A stretch of 24,236 nucleotides of DNA, taken from NCBI GenBank assembly GCA_044220955.1, contig JBGAQA010000095.1, forward strand, positions 1-24,236, in the 5' to 3' direction. The notes beneath the pieces are model-generated. The model saw nothing but the letters and a program-made list of their open reading frames with translations, searched no databases and was not told where the DNA came from. Source of the DNA: Sandaracinaceae bacterium. GTDB lineage: Bacteria; Myxococcota_A; Polyangia; Polyangiales; Sandaracinaceae. Position 1 is the first letter of the stretch. Each line of letters starts with the position of its first letter. This document shows, in pieces, positions 3,473 to 19,399 of this stretch. The translations under genes were made by a program, and so were the position numbers.

Positions 3473-4438
3473 TTGCTCTCGGACCTTCCGCCGCCGTTCG
3501 GGAAGAGAAAGCGTCCCTCGATCGAGGTCCGGCGGTTTCGCGGGACGGCGCGGCTGGCCGAGGGGCTCGAGCGGCTGCGCGTCGCGCACCTGACCGACAT
3601 GCACTTCGGGCGCGTGACGCCTCTCTCCGTGCAGGAGGCCGCCGTCGCGGCCGTGAACGCGGAGGAGCCGGACGTCGTCGTGCTCACGGGCGACTTCGTC
3701 TGCCACTCGCAGGCGTACCTCGAGCAGATGAGCGCCGTGCTCGGGAAGCTGCGCGCGCCCGCGCTCGGCGTGCTCGGCAACCACGACTACTGGTCGGGAG
3801 CGGACGAGGTCCGGCACGGGCTGAAGAAGGCGAACGTCACGCTCCTCAGCAACGCGCACACGACGATCGAGGTGCGCGGCCAGCGCCTGCAGATCCTCGG
3901 CCTGGACGACGCGTACACCGGCCACGCCGATCGCGCGCGCGCGCTGAAGGGCCTGCGCAAAGACGTGCCGACGCTCGGCCTCTCGCACATCGCCGAGGAG
4001 GCCGACGCGCTCTGGGCGCAGGGCGTCTCGCTCGTGCTCGCGGGGCACACGCACGGCGGCCAGGTGACGGTCGCGAGCCTGCACGAGCTCGCGATCGGCC
4101 GCCTCGTCGGCCACAGGTACGTCCACGGTCTCTACGGCAAGCGGAACGGCGGCGAGCAGGGCACGGGCGCCGTCTACGTGAGCGCCGGGATCGGTGCGGC
4201 GATGATCCCGATCCGCCTCGGCGATCGCGGCCGGCGCGAGGTCGCGATCTTCGAGCTCGGCGCGAGCGCGCCCGCCCTCGAAGAGCACCACGACGAGCAG
4301 CCCCCCTTGCCCGGCCGCAAGCCCTCGCCCGCGCTCGTGGAAAAGCGGCGTGCCGCGGTGGCGAAGAAGATGTGGAAGCGCGAGAGCGCGGCCGCCCAGC
4401 GGGCGCTCGCGGCCGAGCGGAAGAAGCCGCGCTCGTGA
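3473..4438 (+). CDS. YkuE/YaeI-like metallophosphoesterase
   Basis: Motifs HLTDMH, LTGDFV, LGNHD, LSH, AGHTHGGQ, YVSAGIG. Start uncertain; TTG 3473 chosen because TATGCT lies 9 nt upstream. Confidence 0.88.
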   Translation: MLSDLPPPFGKRKRPSIEVRRFRGTARLAEGLERLRVAHLTDMHFGRVTPLSVQEAAVAAVNAEEPDVVVLTGDFVCHSQAYLEQMSAVLGKLRAPALGVLGNHDYWSGADEVRHGLKKANVTLLSNAHTTIEVRGQRLQILGLDDAYTGHADRARALKGLRKDVPTLGLSHIAEEADALWAQGVSLVLAGHTHGGQVTVASLHELAIGRLVGHRYVHGLYGKRNGGEQGTGAVYVSAGIGAAMIPIRLGDRGRREVAIFELGASAPALEEHHDEQPPLPGRKPSPALVEKRRAAVAKKMWKRESAAAQRALAAERKKPRS

Positions 4439-6030
4439 CCGAGCCGACCACCCGATCGAGCGAGCGGGAGCGCGCGCCCTCCGTGACCGTGAAGTCGCTC
4501 GACGCGAGCCGCGTGGAGCACGCCACGGAGCGACGTCGCGCGCGCGCCGGCGTGCTCGTGATCTCGGTGGTGTTCCCCCTGACGACCTTCCTCGACGTGC
4601 TCTACGCCGACGTGGGCGCGCCCGGCTCGCTGCCGGCCGTTCTGGTCGTGCGTGCGGTCGCGACCCTCTACCTCTGGGCGCTCGTCGCCCGCTTCCAGCT
4701 CGTGCCCGAGATGGGCGGACGCGAGCTGCGCGTCCATCGCTACGGCCTGATCCTCTGGATGATGACGGCGCTCGCGGCGATGGGCGCCTCCCTCGGCGGC
4801 TTCGGGAGCCTGTACGGCGCGGGCGCGATCGTGCTCGCCGGCTCGCTCGCGATGTTCCCCGAGCCCTGGCGCACGCACCTCTCCATCGCGATCCCCGTCT
4901 CGCTCGTCTACCCGGCCGTGATGCTCGCGAGCCTGCTCGTCTCGCCCGTGACGCAGGCCGACGCGAGGGACTCGCACGAGGTCTTGTGGCTCATCGTCTA
5001 CTCGGTGCTCATCGCCGTGTCGGTGGTCAACGCCGTGGCCATCAGCCACCTGAGCTGGTCGCTGCGCAAGGAGGCCTTCGCCGAGAAGCGTGTCGGCCGC
5101 TACCGCCTCCGCCGGCGCCTCGGCAAGGGCGGCATGGGCGAGGTCTGGGCGGCCAAGCACGTGGGCCTGGGGCGCGAGGTCGCGCTCAAGCTGCTCGACG
5201 CGGGCCAAGGCGACGCGACCATCGCCGTCGAGCGCTTCGAGCGCGAGGTGCGCGCGACCAGCGAGCTGACGCACCCACACACCGTGCGCGTGTACGACTA
5301 CGGTGTGGCGGACGAGGGATACCTCTATTATGCGATGGAGCTGCTCGACGGCGAGCACCTCGGCGCGCTCGCTCGACGAGAGGGCCCGATCCCGGCGGCG
5401 CGGGCCGTGTACCTGATGACCCAGGCGGCCCGCGCGCTGGGCGAAGCTCACGCGCGTGGGATCGTGCACCGCGACGTGAAGGCCGAGAACCTCTTCGTGA
5501 CGATCGCGGGGGGCGAGCGCGACTTCCTCAAGGTGCTCGACTTCGGCGTCGCGAAGCTGGTGCGCCACGACGAGGCGGCCCTCACCAAGACCGGCGCGCT
5601 CGCGGGCACGCCATCGACGATGAGCCCCGAGCTGATCCGAGGCGACTCGGTGGGGCCGCCCGCCGACGTCTACGCGCTCGGCGCCGTCCTCTACTTCCTC
5701 CTCGTCGGGCGCTACCCCTTCGAGAGCGAGGCACGCTCGTCGACGATCCTCTCGCACCTGGCCGACCCGGTCGTGCCGCCGAGCGTGCGGAGCAAACAGG
5801 ACGTGCCGCGCGACGTCGAGGACCTGGTGATGCGCTGCCTCGAGAAGGATCCGGGCGCCCGCTACGCGGACGCGAACGCGCTCGCCGATGCCCTCGAGGC
5901 GTGCGGCGTCGCGGGACGGTGGCGCCCCTCGCGGGACGCACCCGCGATGCGGGCGGCGCCGGCCAGCACGGAGAACGAGCCGACGCAGACCGAGGGCGTG
6001 ACGGTGTCCCGCGGGCGCCCCGCCCGCTGA
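4435..6030 (+). CDS. Membrane-anchored Hanks-type Ser/Thr protein kinase (multi-TM N-terminus, cytoplasmic kinase domain)
   Basis: LGKGGMGEVW, VALKLL, HRDVKAEN, KVLDFGVAK, GTPSTMSPE, DVYALG. About six hydrophobic segments precede the kinase domain. GTG start overlaps the upstream stop (GTGA). Confidence 0.93.
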   Translation: MTEPTTRSSERERAPSVTVKSLDASRVEHATERRRARAGVLVISVVFPLTTFLDVLYADVGAPGSLPAVLVVRAVATLYLWALVARFQLVPEMGGRELRVHRYGLILWMMTALAAMGASLGGFGSLYGAGAIVLAGSLAMFPEPWRTHLSIAIPVSLVYPAVMLASLLVSPVTQADARDSHEVLWLIVYSVLIAVSVVNAVAISHLSWSLRKEAFAEKRVGRYRLRRRLGKGGMGEVWAAKHVGLGREVALKLLDAGQGDATIAVERFEREVRATSELTHPHTVRVYDYGVADEGYLYYAMELLDGEHLGALARREGPIPAARAVYLMTQAARALGEAHARGIVHRDVKAENLFVTIAGGERDFLKVLDFGVAKLVRHDEAALTKTGALAGTPSTMSPELIRGDSVGPPADVYALGAVLYFLLVGRYPFESEARSSTILSHLADPVVPPSVRSKQDVPRDVEDLVMRCLEKDPGARYADANALADALEACGVAGRWRPSRDAPAMRAAPASTENEPTQTEGVTVSRGRPAR

Positions 6031-12697: not shown

Positions 12698-14107
12698 ATG
12701 CTGCGGAGCCTCCCGCTGCGGGTGTTCGTGCTGATGTGCATCGCGATCGCCCTCGTGATCGGCGCGACGTGGCTCTACCTCGATGCGGCGCACGCGGAGC
12801 GCGCGGCTGGGGTCCTCGAGGGCGCCGCCGTGCTCGCGGTGCTCTTCGCGGCAGGCATCGCGGTGCTGCTCTCGCGCTGGGTCAGCTCGCCCCTCGGCGA
12901 GATGGCGGGTTCGGCCGATCGCCTGGCGTCCGGCGATCTCTCGGTGCGCACGCGCGCCCGGCGCGACGACGAGATCGGGGCGCTCGGGCGCGCGCTCGAC
13001 CGCATGGCCGACCAGCTCGAGGATCGCTTCGCCCGGGTCCGCGAGGAAGAGGCGCGCCTGCGCGCGATGCTGGACGCGATGGTCGAGGCCGTGCTCGTCG
13101 CCGATCGGGAGGGCCGCGTCGTCCTCTCGAACGCGGCGTTCAACAAGCTGGCCGAGGCCGATCCGATCGGACGCCGGGTGATCGAGGCGCTGCGCAGCCC
13201 GGAGCTGCACGAGGCCGTCGAGCGCGCGATCGCCGGCCAGGGCGGCCGTGTCCAGGTGGAGCTGGCGACCTCGCGCGTTCCTCGCACGCTGCGCGCCACG
13301 GTGTCGCCCTTGGCCGAGACGCGCGGCGCGATCGCCGTGCTGCACGACGTGACCGAGCTCGAGCGCGCGAACTCCATCCGCCGCGACTTCGTCGCCAACG
13401 CGAGCCACGAGCTGCGGACGCCGCTGACCTCGATTCGAGGCTTCGCCGAGACACTGCAGGGCGGCGCGCTCGACGACCCGAAGATCGCACGACGCTTCGT
13501 GTCGAGCATCGTCGAGAACTCCGTGCGTCTCTCGCGGCTCGTCGACGATCTGCTCGAGCTCTCGCGCTCCGAGTCGCCGAACGTCGACTACGAGCTCGAG
13601 CCGGTCTCCATCGGCGAGGTCGCGGCGAAGGTGCTTCGATCGCTGGAGTCGCAGGCGCTCGACAAGAAGATCACGCTCGTCCTCGAGCAGCCGGACGGCG
13701 AGGTCTGGGCGCGGGCCGAGCTGCGCGCTCTCGAGCACGTCGTGGTCAACCTCGTGGACAACGGAATCAAGTACACGCCCGCGGGCGGCCGCGTCGTGGC
13801 GCGCGCATCGAAGCAGGGCGGGAGCGCGGTGCTCGAGGTCGAGGACACCGGGCAGGGCATCGGGGCCGAGCACCTGCCGCGCATCTTCGAGCGCTTCTAT
13901 CGCGTCGACCCCGGACGCGCGCGGGAGCAAGGCGGCTCCGGCCTCGGCCTCGCGATCGTGAAGCACCTCGTGCTGAAGATGGGCGGCGAGATCAGCGTGC
14001 GGAGCCGCATGCGCGAGGGCACGACGTTCCGAGTGGAGCTCCCGCAGGTGGTCCCCGAGGCCGATGGAGACGAGGGGTCGGACGCGCTACCCTCCTCGCG
14101 GGGTTGA
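12698..14107 (+). CDS. PhoR-like sensor histidine kinase (2 TM, HAMP, PAS, HisKA, HATPase)
   Basis: HAMP DEIGALGRALDRMA, H-box DFVANASHELRTPLT, NLVDNGIKYT, DTGQGI, IFERFYRVD, GSGLGLAIVKH. ATG 12698 lies 10 nt after TATAGT. Confidence 0.93.
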   Translation: MLRSLPLRVFVLMCIAIALVIGATWLYLDAAHAERAAGVLEGAAVLAVLFAAGIAVLLSRWVSSPLGEMAGSADRLASGDLSVRTRARRDDEIGALGRALDRMADQLEDRFARVREEEARLRAMLDAMVEAVLVADREGRVVLSNAAFNKLAEADPIGRRVIEALRSPELHEAVERAIAGQGGRVQVELATSRVPRTLRATVSPLAETRGAIAVLHDVTELERANSIRRDFVANASHELRTPLTSIRGFAETLQGGALDDPKIARRFVSSIVENSVRLSRLVDDLLELSRSESPNVDYELEPVSIGEVAAKVLRSLESQALDKKITLVLEQPDGEVWARAELRALEHVVVNLVDNGIKYTPAGGRVVARASKQGGSAVLEVEDTGQGIGAEHLPRIFERFYRVDPGRAREQGGSGLGLAIVKHLVLKMGGEISVRSRMREGTTFRVELPQVVPEADGDEGSDALPSSRG

Positions 14108-14706
14108 TGGGCGCGCGCGAGACGGCGGAGATCGACGCGGCGCTGCCGAGCGTCACGGCGTACGTGCGCGGCCTGCCCGCGGGCTGGTCGTCTTATCCGG
14201 AGTGCGCCGCACGCGGCAGGCTCCTGGGGTCACTGGCGGTCACGGGCGCGCTCGACGGGCTCGAGGGCCTGCCGGACGCGCTCGCGCGCCACCTCCCGAC
14301 GCTCTCGGCCGGGTGGATCCCCGAGGTGGTGCACGTCGGGCTGATGCTCGCGGTTCGCGATCGCCGCTTCGCCGGCGCGGGCGGAGAGGACGCCTTTCTC
14401 GCGTGGTTGCACCGCCTGAACGGCGCGGTGATGCCGGAGCGCAGCGACCCACGCGCGGCCGTCCTGGAGCTCCCGACGATCTGGTCGAGCCTGCACACTG
14501 GCACCGTCCTCGAGGTCCGCGAGGCGAGCGAGAGCTCCGCGCTCCTCGCGGCACGACACCCCGAGCCGCTCTTTCCTGCGCTGGCGAGCCGCTGGCGCTG
14601 CGACGCCATCGCGGGGCTCCTCGTCCGCAGCGGCGCCGTGCAGCCGCGCGTGACGCAGCACCCCTACGCCGGTGGCGAGACGCTCCTCGCGATCACGTGG
14701 ACGTGA
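14107..14706 (+). CDS. Hypothetical protein, 199 aa
   Basis: ATG overlaps the kinase stop (TGATG). Protein-like composition: LPSVTAYVRGLPAGWSSYPEC...WIPEV...LPTIWSSLHTGT. Confidence 0.7.
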   Translation: MGARETAEIDAALPSVTAYVRGLPAGWSSYPECAARGRLLGSLAVTGALDGLEGLPDALARHLPTLSAGWIPEVVHVGLMLAVRDRRFAGAGGEDAFLAWLHRLNGAVMPERSDPRAAVLELPTIWSSLHTGTVLEVREASESSALLAARHPEPLFPALASRWRCDAIAGLLVRSGAVQPRVTQHPYAGGETLLAITWT

Positions 14707-15271
14707 GCGCCTGGGGCGCGCGCGCGCACGAGCAGTCGAGGCACCCGTGCTCGGCGCAGGTTCCGCACGCGCGCGCGACCTGCTCCCGGAGCGCCTTGCG
14801 CGCGCGAAAGAGGCGCACGCCGGCGTTGCTCGCCGAGATGCCGACCGCCTCCGCGTAGTCCTTCACGGCGACGCCGTCGATCTCCACGCGACGCAGCACG
14901 TCCGCGTACTCCGGCTTGAGGGTCGCCGCGAGGTCGGTCACGCAGCGACACGCGACGCGCGTCCACTCCTGGTCGTCTTCCGCATCGGCCATCTCGGCGG
15001 CCAGCTCTTCGAGACGGCGCTCGCTCACGGCGTGACGTCGCTGGTGGTCGATCACGGCGTTGCGGAGCACGCGATAGAACCACCCGAGCACCGACTCTCG
15101 GATGTCGTCGGCATGGTCGAGGCTGCGGACGAAGGCCTCCTGCACGATCTCCTCGGCCGCGGCGCGACTGCCGATCCTCCTCTCCACATAGCGGAGGAAG
15201 TCACGGTGGTTCGCGACGAACGTCTCGAGCACGGCCTTCGACGGGCTCTGGCCCGGGTCTTCTCGGCTCAC
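14693..15271 (-). CDS. CorE-like ECF sigma factor with linker CxC and C-terminal Cys-rich domain, 192 aa
   Basis: Sigma2 region FLRYVERRIGSRAAAEEIVQEAF...WFYRVLRNAVIDHQRR, linker CRC, sigma4 HTH LKPEYADVL...YAEAVGISASNAGVRLFRARKAL, C-terminal CGTCAEHGCLDCSC. GGAGG precedes GTG 15271. Confidence 0.9.
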   Translation of the reverse strand: MSREDPGQSPSKAVLETFVANHRDFLRYVERRIGSRAAAEEIVQEAFVRSLDHADDIRESVLGWFYRVLRNAVIDHQRRHAVSERRLEELAAEMADAEDDQEWTRVACRCVTDLAATLKPEYADVLRRVEIDGVAVKDYAEAVGISASNAGVRLFRARKALREQVARACGTCAEHGCLDCSCARAPQALTST

Positions 15272-15290
15272 GTCGTCCTCCGCTCTCTGC

Positions 15291-15329
15291 GCGAGCGGGG
15301 GGCTCGACCCTTCGGCCGCGCCCCCTCGC
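15291..15329 (-). terminator. GC-rich imperfect hairpin between the Cys-rich peptide and the sigma gene
   Basis: GCGAG(C)GGGGGGCTCGACC-CTTC-GGCCGCGCCCCCTCGC can pair as a long stem. No U tract, so its role is uncertain. Confidence 0.4.
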
Positions 15330-15347
15330 CCGGGCACCACATGACTC

Positions 15348-15515
15348 CTACTTCCTGGTCGCGCAGGCGCAACCGCCGCCGCAGCGGCAGGTCTGCTCGC
15401 ACCTGCAGCTCTCGCCGCAGGTGCATCGCTCGGCCGCCGCGGCGCACCCGCAGCTCGTCTGTGCGCATCGACAGCCACTCGGGCTCGGGCTCGGGCTCTG
15501 CTTCTCGTTGCTCAT
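15348..15515 (-). CDS. Metallothionein-like Cys-rich peptide, 55 aa
   Basis: Manual translation: MSNEKQSPSPSPSGCRCAQTSCGCAAAAERCTCGESCRCEQTCRCGGGCACATRK*. It has 12 Cys in six CxC pairs and no aromatic residues or His. Strong RBS (GAGGAG) precedes the ATG. Below the ORF-track length cutoff. Confidence 0.85.
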   Translation of the reverse strand: MSNEKQSPSPSPSGCRCAQTSCGCAAAAERCTCGESCRCEQTCRCGGGCACATRK

Positions 15516-15564
15516 CGCTTCTCTCCTCGTGAGAGGTCGCGCTCACTCGCGCGCCCTCACCCTC

Positions 15565-15592
15565 ACGACGCAGCGCCCGGCGCTTCATTACA
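15565..15592 (-). promoter_or_regulatory. Putative ECF-sigma promoter TGTAAT-N16-CGTC
   Basis: Minus strand reads TGTAAT gaagcgccgggcgctg CGTCGT just after the oxidase stop and about 50 nt upstream of the peptide ATG. CGT(C) is a common ECF -10 element. Confidence 0.6.
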
Positions 15593-15596
15593 CCGC

Positions 15597-16856
15597 TCAG
15601 CGCACCACCTCGAAGTGCCCCATCATCCCGGCGGCGTGATGCTCGAGGATGTGGCAGTGGTACATCCACGAGCCCGGGCGATCGTCGGGACGGAACGCGA
15701 TGGTGACGGTCTGCCGACCGACCACGTTGACGGTGTCCTCCCACGACGAGGGCGTCGTGGGAACGCCATCGACGGCGACCACCTGGAAGAAGAACCCGTG
15801 CAGGTGGAAGGGGTGATCCATCCCCGTCTCGTTGACGATGTCCCAGACCTGGAGCTCGCCGACCTTGACCGGCGCATCGTGGTGGTGGGTCTCGTCGTTG
15901 ACGAGCCAGTCGTGCCCGTGCAGCGTCATCCGCGCACCGAGGCGGACGGTGCGCGTGCGGACCGGCTCGCCCGTGACGAGCGGCACGACGCGACCCCGCG
16001 CCCGGGGGACCGACGCGCGCGAAGCGGCGCGGGGCCCGACGCGGAGCGAGGCCCACGCCGTGCGGGTGGGCCACTTCATCTTCGAGCGTCGATACGGCAG
16101 CGACTCGATCGGCACGACGCTGCCTTCGTCCTCGAACGGGCCGACGGCCAGCTCGACGCGCTCGCCGGGCGCCAGCAGCTTCTCGAACACGACGGGCGTC
16201 TCGTTGCTCGGACCGCCGCCGCCGCCGACCACGCGGAACGGCCGACCGCCGATCGAGAGCCGCACGTAGCGCGCGCTGCACGCGTTCACGACGCGCCAGC
16301 GCTCGACCTGGCCCGCCGCGATCTCGAGGCGGGGCATCGAGCGCCCGTTCACGAGCGTGACGCCACCCTCACGACCGGCGTGGCGATCGAAGATCGACGT
16401 GGCCGCGATGTGCCCGCGTCCGTCGAGCGACACGTCGTCGAGGACCAGCACGCGATCGGCATCGAAGCCCCGCTCGTCCTCGCCCAGCACCACGAGCGCG
16501 CCGTAGAGGCCCCGCTCCATCTGCACCGTCTCGTTGGCGTGCGAGTGGTACCAGAACGTGCCGGCGTCAGGCAGCTCGAAGCGGTACTCGAACGTCTCCC
16601 CCGGCGCGACCATCCGCTGCGTGCACGCGGTGCCGTCCATCGCGGCGGGCACGCGCAGGCCGTGCCAGTGGATCGACGTCGGCTCGGGCAGGTGGTTGAC
16701 GAGCCTCGCCACGAGCGTGTCACCCACGTGCGCGACGATCAGAGGACCCGGCACGCGGCCCTCGTACCCCCACGCCGGAACGCTCCGGCCTGGCGCGATC
16801 TCCCACGCCATCTCCTTCGCCTCGAGCCGCACGTCGATCTCTCTCGCAGTCCTCAT
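15597..16856 (-). CDS. Multicopper oxidase (three-domain, CueO/CuoB-like), 419 aa
   Basis: All four Cu motifs: HWHG, WYHSH, HPFHLHG, HCHILEHHAAGMM. AGGAGG precedes ATG 16856. Confidence 0.94.
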   Translation of the reverse strand: MRTAREIDVRLEAKEMAWEIAPGRSVPAWGYEGRVPGPLIVAHVGDTLVARLVNHLPEPTSIHWHGLRVPAAMDGTACTQRMVAPGETFEYRFELPDAGTFWYHSHANETVQMERGLYGALVVLGEDERGFDADRVLVLDDVSLDGRGHIAATSIFDRHAGREGGVTLVNGRSMPRLEIAAGQVERWRVVNACSARYVRLSIGGRPFRVVGGGGGPSNETPVVFEKLLAPGERVELAVGPFEDEGSVVPIESLPYRRSKMKWPTRTAWASLRVGPRAASRASVPRARGRVVPLVTGEPVRTRTVRLGARMTLHGHDWLVNDETHHHDAPVKVGELQVWDIVNETGMDHPFHLHGFFFQVVAVDGVPTTPSSWEDTVNVVGRQTVTIAFRPDDRPGSWMYHCHILEHHAAGMMGHFEVVR

Positions 16857-16951
16857 GGTCCCTCCTGCCGGGCCCGTGGCCCGATGACGTCGCCAGTACA
16901 CTTCTTCTTCTTCGTTCTTCTTCGGCGCCCTCGGGAGCACCGCGGGGGCGC

Positions 16952-17650
16952 TCACGCCGCGACGAGCTCGAGGCTCGCGTGCGCCAGCGCCGAGGCGGTC
17001 TTGCGGCCGACGATCGCGGGCGCCTGACGCACCAGCGACTCGTCCTCGAGCGCCGCGACCATGAAGAGCGCGAAGTCGACGCGGCGGGTGCGGTTGCTCG
17101 CGAGGACCGGATCGCCGACGTGTCGGCTCCACACCGGGAGCCCCTCGCTCTCGCCTTCCTCGAGATCGCTCCCGCGAACGACGGTCCAGCGCCTGTCGCT
17201 CTCGAAGATCCGCCTGCACGCCTCGACCTGATCGTCGATCTCGGCGAGGCCGAAGAGACGCACGATCCAGGCGATGATCGGGAGCAGGATGGTGAAGAAC
17301 GCCGAGTAGCGATCCTTCCCGTCGCGGCTGATGTGCCAGCCACAGGAGAAGACGAGGCGCGCGCCCGGCTTCGCGAGGTCGAGGACCGCCTGCGCGGTGC
17401 CCGACGAGTACTGCCGGACGCCCCAGGGCGCCAGGACGACGAGGACGCCGTCGCAGCCGTCGACGGCCTTGCGGATCACCTCGCGGTCATCGGTGCGGCC
17501 GGGGTGGACGGTGATCCGGCCCGCGAAGCGATCGAGCTTCCCGACGCTCTCGGGCCGGCAGACGCCGACCACCTCGTGTCCGCGATCGAGCGCGTGCTCG
17601 ATCATGTACTGGCCCAGCTTCCCCGACGCCCCGACGATGCAGATCTTCAT
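16952..17650 (-). CDS. NAD(P)H-binding Rossmann protein (flavin/biliverdin reductase-like, NAD_binding_10)
   Basis: MKICIVGASGKLG...ALDRGHEVVGVCR, WTVVR, RVDFALFM. GGAGG RBS. Confidence 0.9.
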   Translation of the reverse strand: MKICIVGASGKLGQYMIEHALDRGHEVVGVCRPESVGKLDRFAGRITVHPGRTDDREVIRKAVDGCDGVLVVLAPWGVRQYSSGTAQAVLDLAKPGARLVFSCGWHISRDGKDRYSAFFTILLPIIAWIVRLFGLAEIDDQVEACRRIFESDRRWTVVRGSDLEEGESEGLPVWSRHVGDPVLASNRTRRVDFALFMVAALEDESLVRQAPAIVGRKTASALAHASLELVAA

Positions 17651-17672: not shown

Positions 17673-17719
17673 GACCTTGGCTCGTCGCGCCGGGGCCCAC
17701 TTGAACGAAGGGGCTACGA
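17673..17719 (-). promoter_or_regulatory. Conserved promoter/operator, copy 1 (upstream of the oxidoreductase)
   Basis: Plus strand GACCTTGG-N18-ACTTGAACGAAGGGGCTACGA; near-identical to the copy at 19432-19478. Confidence 0.7.
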
Positions 17720-18484
17720 CAAGCGGAGCGTCGCGGCGGCAATGCCGAACATGCGGCGAAACGTCCGGCTCAGGTGCGCCGAGTCCGAGAAGCCCGCTTC
17801 GTGCGCGGCCTCGGTGAGCGAGGCGCCGACGGCGAACATCTCGACGGCGCGCACCAGGCGCAACCACAGGAGGAACGTCCGGAACGAGAGCCCCGTCTGC
17901 TCGACGAAGAGGTGTCGCGTCCGTCCCTTCGAGAGGCCCACGACCGCGGCGACCTCGCCGAGGCTCACGGGCTGCTCGAGCCGCGCCGACACCCAGGCGA
18001 TCAGCTTCGCGACGCGCCGGTCGACGCGCGGGGCGCGGACACCCTCGCCGGCCAGTCGGGCGATCAGCTCTCGACCCAGGGCGCGGAGATCCTCGTCGCT
18101 GTGCGCTCGGCGCGCGAACGTGGCGCGCAGGCGCGCGGGGATGTCGCCGAGACGCTCCGCCGGCAGGTGCACGATCGGCCCGTCGGCGAAGAGCGTGCGC
18201 GCGATCTCTCGGCCCGCCTGGCCGTCGGACGCGACGAACAGGTGCGCGACCGTCCCGGTCCCCGCGAACGCGTGCGGCGCGTCGGGCGCGACCGCGAGGT
18301 AGCTGCCGGCGACGCGCCCACGATCGCTCTCGAAGTCCACGCGCCCCGTCAGCGCGAGCGTCACCTGGATCACGTGGTGAGCGTGGACGTCGGTGCGCGG
18401 GTACTGCTCGCCGGCGGGAGCGCTCAGGATCCAGAGGCTCGCGCCCTCCCAGACGAGGATGCGACCGTGCGCCTTGGTCCCCAC
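17714..18484 (-). CDS. AraC-family transcriptional regulator
   Basis: N-terminal cupin HAHHVIQ; C-terminal SLGEVAAVVGLSKGRTRHLF...LTEAAHEAGFSDSAHLSRTFRRMFG. Confidence 0.95.
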   Translation of the reverse strand: MGTKAHGRILVWEGASLWILSAPAGEQYPRTDVHAHHVIQVTLALTGRVDFESDRGRVAGSYLAVAPDAPHAFAGTGTVAHLFVASDGQAGREIARTLFADGPIVHLPAERLGDIPARLRATFARRAHSDEDLRALGRELIARLAGEGVRAPRVDRRVAKLIAWVSARLEQPVSLGEVAAVVGLSKGRTRHLFVEQTGLSFRTFLLWLRLVRAVEMFAVGASLTEAAHEAGFSDSAHLSRTFRRMFGIAAATLRLS

Positions 18485-18535: not shown

Positions 18536-19399
18536 TCAGATGCCCGCGGTCGCGGGCACAGCCGGCACGACGGGGTCCGCCGGCAGCACGCTCAGGATGA
18601 TCTGCGTCACGTCCTGCGCGCGATCGGTCTCGAGGTTGTGACCCGCTCCCTCGAAGAGCCACTGGTCGCCGTCCTCGGCAGCATCGGCGATTGCGGCGTG
18701 CATCCAGACCCAGAGGTGCTCGCCCGCGGGCGAGAAGCCGTGCGACGTCGCCGTCAGCACGCGGACTGGATACGACCCGAAGCCGCCGGTCGCCGCGAGC
18801 TGCGCCGAGATGCCCCCGAACGCCTCGTACTCGGCGATCTCCACGGGCGGCCGCGAGCGCAGGACGTCGCGCGGGACGATGCAGCCGGTGACGGCGGCGT
18901 GCTCGCACGCGAGGCTGAAGTCGCCGGGGCGCGGCTCGACGAGCACGAGCGCCGCCACCTCCTCGGGATGCGCCCTCGCGAAGAGCTCCAGGTACGTTCC
19001 GCCGAACGAGTGACCCACGAGCACGTACGGCGGCGCGTGGCCGCGCGCGACGAGCAGTGCGCGGAGATCCTCCACGATGTGCGCGCCGTCCCGCGGCTCC
19101 GTGGTCGGATCGCTGCGTCCGTATCCGGGGCGCGAGTACGCGAACACACGCGCGTGGCCGGAGACCTCGCTCGCGACCTGATCCCACGCGCTCCAGTCGT
19201 TTCCCCAGCCGGACTCGAACACCACCGTCGCCTCGCCGCTGCCGGTCTCGACGAGCTCGACGTCGCGGCCGGAGACCTCGGCGACGGTCGGCGTGAGCCG
19301 CGTGCTGCACGCCGTGAGCGTCGCGAGCGTCAGGAGCACCAGCACGCTCGCTGGCAGGAGCCGGCGGGGGTGGGCGCGTCGGATCGTCTGGGTGTTCAT
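18536..19399 (-). CDS. Alpha/beta hydrolase, predicted lipoprotein
   Basis: Lipobox LTAC, VVFESGWG, YSRPGYGRS, nucleophile GHSFGG, GAGH. AGGAG RBS. Confidence 0.9.
   Translation of the reverse strand: MNTQTIRRAHPRRLLPASVLVLLTLATLTACSTRLTPTVAEVSGRDVELVETGSGEATVVFESGWGNDWSAWDQVASEVSGHARVFAYSRPGYGRSDPTTEPRDGAHIVEDLRALLVARGHAPPYVLVGHSFGGTYLELFARAHPEEVAALVLVEPRPGDFSLACEHAAVTGCIVPRDVLRSRPPVEIAEYEAFGGISAQLAATGGFGSYPVRVLTATSHGFSPAGEHLWVWMHAAIADAAEDGDQWLFEGAGHNLETDRAQDVTQIILSVLPADPVVPAVPATAGI

Follow-up and report, generated by a model that had tools for sequence, protein, structure and literature searches.

CorE of Myxococcus xanthus (MXAN_3426) is an extracytoplasmic function (ECF) sigma factor that works without an anti-sigma factor and lies just downstream of a multicopper oxidase gene. 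It is switched by copper itself: Cu(II) activates and Cu(I) inactivates it, its output rises about threefold with Cu(I) chelators and is lost with a compound that chelates both forms (PMC3107203). It is known to target an outer-membrane efflux gene together with cuoB, as well as P1B-ATPases and a metallochaperone. CorE2 of the same organism (MXAN_5263; ECF238s15) shares the linker CxC and the Cys-rich tail but carries Cys at the specificity position, responds to Cd and Zn, is not autoregulated, and targets a cation efflux gene and a glyoxal oxidase. The residue at the specificity position, Ala or Cys, distinguishes the Cu-responsive CorE from the Cd/Zn-responsive CorE2 (PMC4937300). Here we analyzed a stretch of 24,236 nucleotides (the window) from a Sandaracinaceae bacterium (GCA_044220955.1, contig JBGAQA010000095.1, positions 1-24,236; genome of 7.5 Mb, 88% complete), in which genes for a multicopper oxidase, a Cys-rich peptide and a CorE-type sigma factor follow one another. 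An initial annotation had read the three genes as a putative self-contained metal circuit. From comparative sequence analysis we favor, with a probability of about 0.62, another wiring, in which the sigma and the peptide would form a circuit behind the sigma's own promoter and the oxidase would be wired separately through an AraC-type unit. The features on which this reading depends are the following.

14693..15271, minus strand: ECF sigma factor of the CorE type (former ECF44, within ECF238), 192 aa; Pfam Sigma70_r2 (PF04542) and Sigma70_r4_2 (PF08281), both over cut-off.
15348..15515, minus strand: metallothionein-like peptide, 55 aa, 12 Cys (22%) as six CxC pairs, no His, no aromatics, no signal peptide; from alignment and profile search.
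15567..15592, minus strand: predicted sigma promoter TGTAATG-N15-CGTC, starting 5 bp past the oxidase stop and ahead of the peptide start; from de novo motif search and matrix.
15597..16856, minus strand: three-domain multicopper oxidase, 419 aa; Pfam Cu-oxidase_3, Cu-oxidase and Cu-oxidase_2.

The sigma factor shares with CorE the sigma2 and sigma4 regions, the linker CxC, the tail spacing, the Ala, the lack of an anti-sigma factor and the multicopper oxidase gene just upstream. Its cysteines are C108-R-C110 in the linker and C169, C172, C177, C180 and C182 in the C-terminal Cys-rich stretch CGTCAEHGCLDCSC (C169-C182), with Ala at 173, and their register is that of CorE C120/C122/C181/C184/A185/C189/C192/C194 at a constant offset of 12 (PMC3107203, PMC4937300). 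All four invariant CorE cysteines (181, 184, 192 and 194) and Cys189 are matched in the tail, the sixth, C206, which has a minor role in CorE, is absent, and the cysteines of the window sigma, including the linker CxC, are invariant in the sigma alignment. No anti-sigma-like gene was found among the adjoining genes, the upstream one being the peptide gene and the downstream one a convergent open reading frame (ORF) without a Pfam match. The initial annotation was accurate on these points: the co-orientation of the three genes is confirmed on the minus strand by ORF coordinates and Pfam, the linker CRC and the C-terminal stretch are present as it described them, and the sigma is of the CorE type without an adjacent anti-sigma gene. 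The sigma is 56% identical to that of Sorangium cellulosum So ce56 at locus L074, which we assume to be sce8251, a listed CorE-like member (PMC4937300 supplement). Because Ala173 sits at the position that separates CorE from CorE2, the sigma is predicted to be of the copper type and copper would be its inducer. A plasmid search returned 10 distant sigmas. The same genome also encodes, at C288:20557-21042 (L003), a second ECF sigma with another Cys-bearing tail (CCEIEVD...CEPRAGACGCG), which we take to be SigZ/ECF24-like.

The sequence comparisons indicate that the peptide gene is real and conserved and that it represents an uncatalogued metallothionein-like family. The peptide is small, Cys-rich, built on CxC, free of aromatics and without a stable apo fold, the operational sequence criteria for a metallothionein; its AlphaFold model has no regular structure (pLDDT 53). 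It matched no Pfam or NCBIfam family, a word-index protein search gave no matches, and the ESM Atlas search gave only leads below 0.9, under the threshold for recognition. When 13 family members were compared with the Pfam and NCBIfam bacterial metallothionein models at E≤1, none matched, apart from one weak plant PEC match (E 0.2). A profile search, on the other hand, found 53 representative proteins at E≤0.001 (50% clustering), nearly all of 45-70 aa and with a common pattern; the nearest solved sequences were snail Cd-metallothioneins, and these matches were weak (best E 0.024). In the ortholog of genome G003 all 12 cysteines are retained, four of them through a synonymous change. One database protein (P0163) fuses the 12-Cys peptide to a sigma fragment and is likely a frameshift or a mis-call.

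The peptide keeps company with the sigma. GTDB genomes were scanned with the sigma sequence alone (29 of 64 parts covered), and the best 80 of at least 292 confirmed loci were used; peptides were sought as ORFs of 22-85 aa with at least 7 Cys, at least 3 CxC and low Arg, a looser cysteine filter being swamped by shadow-frame ORFs, so that all counts come from stricter filters. This neighborhood survey, which the initial annotation had proposed, gave an association beyond chance: a peptide ORF of this kind lay within 500 bp of the sigma in 22 of the 80 loci (21 of the 71 in which both 500-bp flanks were present), and none was found in 706,008 bases of farther flank. The arrangement was divergent in 13, upstream and co-oriented in 4, convergent in 3 and downstream and co-oriented in 2, and the loci were named for myxobacteria and Acidobacteriota among others. 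A similar filter applied to the whole 7.5-Mb genome gave four matches, one of them the window peptide. In the reverse direction, a 13-sequence profile detected the 12-Cys family in 12 of the 251 genomes searched from the order, with a CorE-like sigma within 1.5 kb in 11 and a contig end at the twelfth. None of the conclusions depends on the unpublished genomes G134 and G301. Much shorter peptides (24-32 aa, 7-10 Cys) stand behind the shared motif described below at L073, L078, L079, L149 and L150, and therefore several unrelated cysteine patterns occupy one slot.

Such close association could also mean direct action of the peptide on the sigma, whether in the role of a small soluble anti-sigma factor or in that of a copper chaperone upstream of CorE; it nearly always adjoins the sigma, and an unidentified Cu(II) chaperone has been speculated on for CorE (PMC3107203). 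We consider this very improbable. CorE-like sigmas without the peptide are the majority (58 of 80), similar peptides occur beside signal-less oxidases in seven AT-rich loci with no such sigma near, and spacers vary, lengths run from 24 to 64 aa and the cysteine patterns are several and unrelated, for which reason a metal sponge fits better than a binding partner. A short Cys-rich ORF under an ECF sigma is, in addition, the layout of copper-binding peptides that are made on the ribosome and modified after translation (RiPPs), and the window peptide might by this resemblance be the precursor of a modified metal-binding peptide. We give that reading almost no weight and reject it because no modifying enzymes were found: neither radical SAM, MNIO-type nor other peptide-modifying families occur among the 18 window proteins or 37 selected neighbors. 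A conserved leader or export signal is likewise absent from the peptide alignment.

Like the window peptide, SmtA/BmtA are small, Cys-rich, metal-sequestering peptides encoded beside their own metal sensor. The zinc finger of SmtA has His ligands; MymT of Mycobacterium tuberculosis is repressed by RicR, and its cysteine pattern differs from that of the window peptide. The fold of SmtA is that of a zinc finger (PMC7558416) and its regulator is an ArsR/SmtB repressor, whereas the window peptide has neither His nor aromatics and no Pfam-model match. MymT is similar in being a small, originally unannotated, cytoplasmic Cys-rich protein, copper-inducible and with Cu(I) as its ligand (PMC7558416), but it is controlled by a Cu-sensing repressor rather than by a sigma (PMC11672702), and no sequence match between it and the window peptide was found. 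The word "metallothionein" is absent from the main text of PMC3107203, of PMC6851896 and of PMC8999054, and also from four supplement files of PMC4937300, including the table of 67 sigma neighborhoods; a literature search that covered few subscription papers found no report of a metallothionein controlled by a CorE-like sigma, nor any of the oxidase clade described below.

For 25 peptide genes, 130 bp of upstream DNA were submitted to a Gibbs motif search, whose best solution was TGTAA(T/G)-N16-CGT(C/T), exact in 23 of the 25, with a 15-base spacer in one and a single mismatch in another. Throughout the 80 sigma loci there were 82 sites with a spacer of 16, distributed over 60 loci, and 1-6 sites for each of the other spacers between 12 and 20. 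Twenty-one of the 82 lie ahead of peptides, 40 ahead of HMA, YHS-type, CPMHP or cupredoxin-like ORFs, and 21 are unassigned; these labels are presumptive, given by sequence motifs. At L244, where the gene order matches the published corE region (PMC4937300 Table S4), the motif fronts the cupredoxin gene, the outer-membrane efflux gene and a convergent metallochaperone gene; CorE promoters have been placed ahead of the outer-membrane efflux gene and the metallochaperone gene, the latter being CorE-dependent (PMC3107203). Cys-type relatives carry the motif right downstream. The 2021 ECF classification gives no conserved motif for ECF238 at group level (PMC7826278). The motif is likely the promoter read by the CorE-type sigma, judging from these positions.

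With a matrix built from other loci, the window site ranked first in its own genome at 26.0 bits, followed by 20.0, and it is the sole strong site. The best scores were -14.6 upstream of the oxidase, -19.1 upstream of a gene for an NAD(P)H-binding protein that precedes it and -24.2 upstream of the sigma, and the two HMA genes of the genome had no sigma motif among the top sites. Because the only strong site lies between the oxidase and the peptide, the predicted regulon is the peptide gene plus, by read-through, the sigma gene, in contrast to the several targets of CorE. A sigma-70 promoter scan found nothing. TGTACT at 16900 was tried as a sigma promoter and rejected, since the second element is absent.

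Two predicted RNA hairpins border the peptide gene.

15529..15560, minus strand: hairpin in the 5' leader of the peptide mRNA, seen repeatedly across the family; z -2.74.
15291..15331, minus strand: GC hairpin between peptide and sigma, without a U tract; 79-nt fold of -44.3 kcal/mol, z -3.55, 0/200 shuffles as good.

The leader hairpin likely stabilizes the peptide transcript. The 39 peptide leaders had a mean z of -1.67, compared with -0.16 for 118 other motif-driven leaders, kin among them not being independent, and the alignment has three consensus pairs, one of which is changed on both sides in 5 of 25 sequences. When promoter and hairpin were joined into one pattern, it had no match in 301 genomes of the phylum, but it was too narrow and misses the window itself. 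The GC hairpin may attenuate read-through or protect the 3' end of the peptide mRNA. The gaps measure 95 bp between the NAD(P)H-binding gene and the oxidase, 81 bp between oxidase and peptide and 76 bp between peptide and sigma, and a consensus terminator scan of the three found none.

In the circuit we propose, metal, likely copper, would bind the CxC and the Cys-rich tail of the sigma and make it directly active. The active sigma would then read the motif and yield the peptide mRNA with its conserved 5' hairpin, from which a cytoplasmic metallothionein-like sponge would be made, and read-through across the 76-bp hairpin gap would supply more sigma, a form of autoregulation. The peptide would hold Cu(I), presumably in a thiolate cluster.

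The initial annotation had suggested that the peptide could be the missing negative feedback element. The feedback was not missing, as Cu(I) already switches CorE off (PMC3107203), and given this off-switch a sponge for Cu(I) might lengthen the pulse or damp it. As an analogy, tetrathiomolybdate served in the CorE experiments as a compound that removes both forms of copper. Thiols reduce Cu(II) and hold Cu(I). Because they would by this remove both forms, as tetrathiomolybdate does, we lean toward net damping, although no part of the proposed mechanism is less certain. A prolonging effect, like that of the chelator bathocuproine disulfonate (BCS), is doubtful, and a peptide without any effect on the sigma is somewhat more doubtful.

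The oxidase carries all four copper-binding motifs (HWH, HSH, HPFHLH and HCHILEHHAAGM), which are complete in 116 of 120 oxidase homologues. Its model matches laccase/CueO-type folds with a TM-score of about 0.85 at no more than about 33% identity in the fold search, and it shares fold and copper-binding motifs with CueO, CuoB and the Thermus laccase-type oxidases. Unlike these oxidases, it lacks a long Met-rich insert, and its whole clade is without a Tat/Sec signal; a short conserved His/Asp loop is found at 310-327, and the oxidase scores far below the cut-off of the NCBIfam CueO and CopA models. The sequence starts at the first beta-strand, and no Sec or Tat signal was found in it. In a hydropathy and twin-arginine test of the 120 closest homologues (62-89% identity), none had a hydrophobic leader and one had RRxL near residue 32, while order-level relatives at 41-50% identity mostly have lipoprotein-like leaders, as judged by eye. 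Because neither the oxidase nor its clade has an export signal, the oxidase is likely cytoplasmic, in contrast to CuoB, which works in the periplasm (PMC6851896); it also lies upstream of the motif.

A second unit, on the upstream side of the oxidase, comprises the following features.

16952..17650, minus strand: NAD(P)H-binding protein (Pfam NAD_binding_10), likely the first gene of the oxidase-containing transcript.
17699..17716, minus strand: conserved box TAGCCCCTTCGTTCAAGT, to which the AraC-family regulator encoded next to it likely binds; it follows the AraC gene and precedes the NAD(P)H gene.
17714..18484, minus strand: AraC-family regulator (Pfam HTH_18); travels with the oxidase clade, a homologue accompanying oxidases of at least 65% identity in 21 of 30 loci.
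18536..19399, minus strand: alpha/beta hydrolase with a lipoprotein-like leader (Pfam Abhydrolase); homologue in 17 of the 30 close-oxidase loci.

A further set of loci was taken from metagenomes by the oxidase alone (80 of 288 used; two locus pairs are near-duplicates and many contigs are short). In 23 of these the oxidase was at least 65% identical and 300 bp of upstream DNA was present, and an AraC-type box TAGCCC(C/T)TTCGTTCAA lay within 300 bp upstream of the oxidase in 20; the box stood alone in 18 and with the sigma motif in 2, the sigma motif alone was found in 2 (one sequence twice), and one locus had neither. The exact box pattern is present in a single copy in the genome of the window. 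Because the box heads the NAD(P)H gene 95 bp above the oxidase, the oxidase is likely the second gene of an AraC-type unit, transcribed separately from the peptide and the sigma.

These results bear on the wiring put forward in the initial annotation, namely one sigma-driven transcript of oxidase, peptide and sigma, with the cytoplasmic oxidase setting the Cu(II)/Cu(I) ratio for the sigma. The genes are co-oriented with gaps of only 81 and 76 bp and no consensus terminator, an oxidase without a signal would share the compartment of the sigma, and among the 80 oxidase loci the peptide was found in 18, the CorE-like sigma in 10 and both in 8 (within 4 kb). The oxidase also stands behind the sigma motif in some relatives: directly at L156/L174, L152, L213, L211 and L217, and in the order motif-peptide-sigma-oxidase at L149, L150, L167 and L204; at L156 the order is sigma-motif-oxidase-motif-peptide. 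In the window, however, no sigma motif precedes the oxidase, the only strong site being downstream of it, and the upstream unit is headed by the AraC-type box. In addition, two relatives of the same genus (G003 and G001) keep only a remnant of the oxidase beside an intact motif, peptide and sigma, and in G005, G022 and G202 the oxidase was not found at close identity where peptide and sigma are present. The AraC, hydrolase and oxidoreductase neighbors would fit an organic substrate equally well, and cuprous oxidase activity is only putative. We therefore regard a single transcript as unlikely and do not retain the oxidase as a target of the sigma here. "Co-transcribed" is not an observation, because the predicted promoter lies between oxidase and peptide; co-transcription is likely for peptide and sigma, and for these two the claim is supported. 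A related proposal, that the cytoplasmic oxidase would regenerate Cu(II) and the peptide remove Cu(I) so that a positive loop keeps the Cu(II)-activated sigma on, seems to us a little less probable still.

Nine database oxidases (P0083, P0087, P0088, P0090, P0093, P0102, P0105, P0108 and P0118) start with M-x5-R(R/H) before a His-rich stretch. Because such a start would be expected where the gene caller took the ATG inside TGTAATG, it suggests more sigma-driven oxidases with His-rich N-termini; a promoter count from mis-extended oxidase N-termini (26 of 120) was dropped, since a related natural N-terminus yields the same pattern. In the gap upstream of the window oxidase there is a purine run of AAG repeats on the minus strand (16901-16925).

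By the comparison of loci, oxidase, peptide, sigma, AraC and hydrolase genes form a shuffled cassette in which the oxidase-sigma linkage is not accidental. Within this mobile cassette the oxidase is an accessory, and certain relatives have it wired to the sigma. The notion of a three-gene unit holds in that the genes travel together, not in a promoter shared with the oxidase, and the three do not form a self-contained unit, since the recurrent cassette also includes the AraC, NAD(P)H-binding and hydrolase genes. At L152 a phytochelatin synthase gene (3916-4602) lies between the oxidase and the peptide gene. In seven AT-rich metagenome loci (L197, L198, L200, L192, L199, L207 and L209; GC 37-46%) a signal-less oxidase of 46-53% identity is accompanied by another kind of Cys-rich peptide, placed 160-310 bp upstream of the oxidase in four, and no CorE-like sigma is nearby in any of them. 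Five of these loci (L197, L198, L199, L200 and L209) encode, upstream of the pair, an AraC protein whose N-terminus bears an MVCxxC motif, presumably HMA-like.

Several observations weigh against a copper circuit of sigma and peptide. The peptide is missing from 58 of the 80 sigma loci and from all 20 loci of the family of G251, and a comparison of its gene with the G003 ortholog, which is a single pair of 44 codons, gave 10 non-synonymous changes, all outside the Cys, against 4 synonymous ones. Three weaker TGTAAG-N16-CGTT sites (20 bits; C246:71788 on the plus, C246:76044 on the plus and C260:23342 on the minus strand) front lipoprotein-like or membrane genes without an evident metal link, and therefore the motif may serve another ECF factor too, or the regulon may be wider. 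The published CorE consensus (Figure S3, PMC3107203) was seeded on "AAC", and the present motif may differ from it. As no terminator separates oxidase and peptide, read-through from upstream may join all genes. The specificity position has Ala in 36 and Cys in none of 38 distinct peptide-linked sigmas, a count biased by the sigma search, one seed pattern of which contained this Ala, and the eight Cys-type sigmas all come from a single family. CorE itself responds weakly to Cd and Zn as well (PMC3107203).

The last of these points would also suit a pair that serves as a sponge for Zn/Cd or for thiophilic metals in general, not as a copper system. The snail Cd-metallothioneins, the nearest although weak match among solved sequences, the phytochelatin synthase of L152 and a P-type ATPase near L034 point in the same direction. 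Against it, the residue behind CorE2's Cd/Zn preference is Ala173 in the window sigma rather than Cys, none of the 38 peptide-linked sigmas has Cys there, and the motif fronts HMA, YHS-type and cupredoxin-like genes. Overall we find a Zn/Cd or general sponge quite improbable and prefer copper as the metal of the sigma-peptide circuit.

The genomic setting adds one further feature.

14107..14706, plus strand: ORF of 199 aa, convergent on the sigma, whose stop it overlaps; without a match in Pfam or NCBIfam, and with one relative in G004.

Beyond it, in the window part 12700-14107 and farther, a sensor kinase gene and its upstream genes are kept in all five genus relatives examined. Their similarity to the window ends at the kinase end, with no sigma, peptide or oxidase in the 0.4-1.5 kb beyond, and for this reason the cassette looks inserted behind the conserved kinase gene.

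Characterized bacterial metallothioneins are few (SmtA/BmtA, MymT), those considered here are under repressors, and a His-free, apparently sigma-wired, uncatalogued family of about 50 clusters (50% identity) adds to them. The motif provides a precise candidate promoter for CorE-like sigmas, and the two-gene circuit might find use in copper biosensing. A clade of oxidases without signal is unusual, and it bears on a long-standing question, namely how Cu(II) reaches CorE in the cytoplasm; if the redox loop of oxidase and peptide were true, it would explain how CorE-type sensors meet Cu(II) in a reducing cytoplasm. In the same way, the oxidase-peptide pair, which recurs under CxxC-bearing AraC proteins in AT-rich bacteria, would, if true, be a general, unrecognized cytoplasmic copper module.

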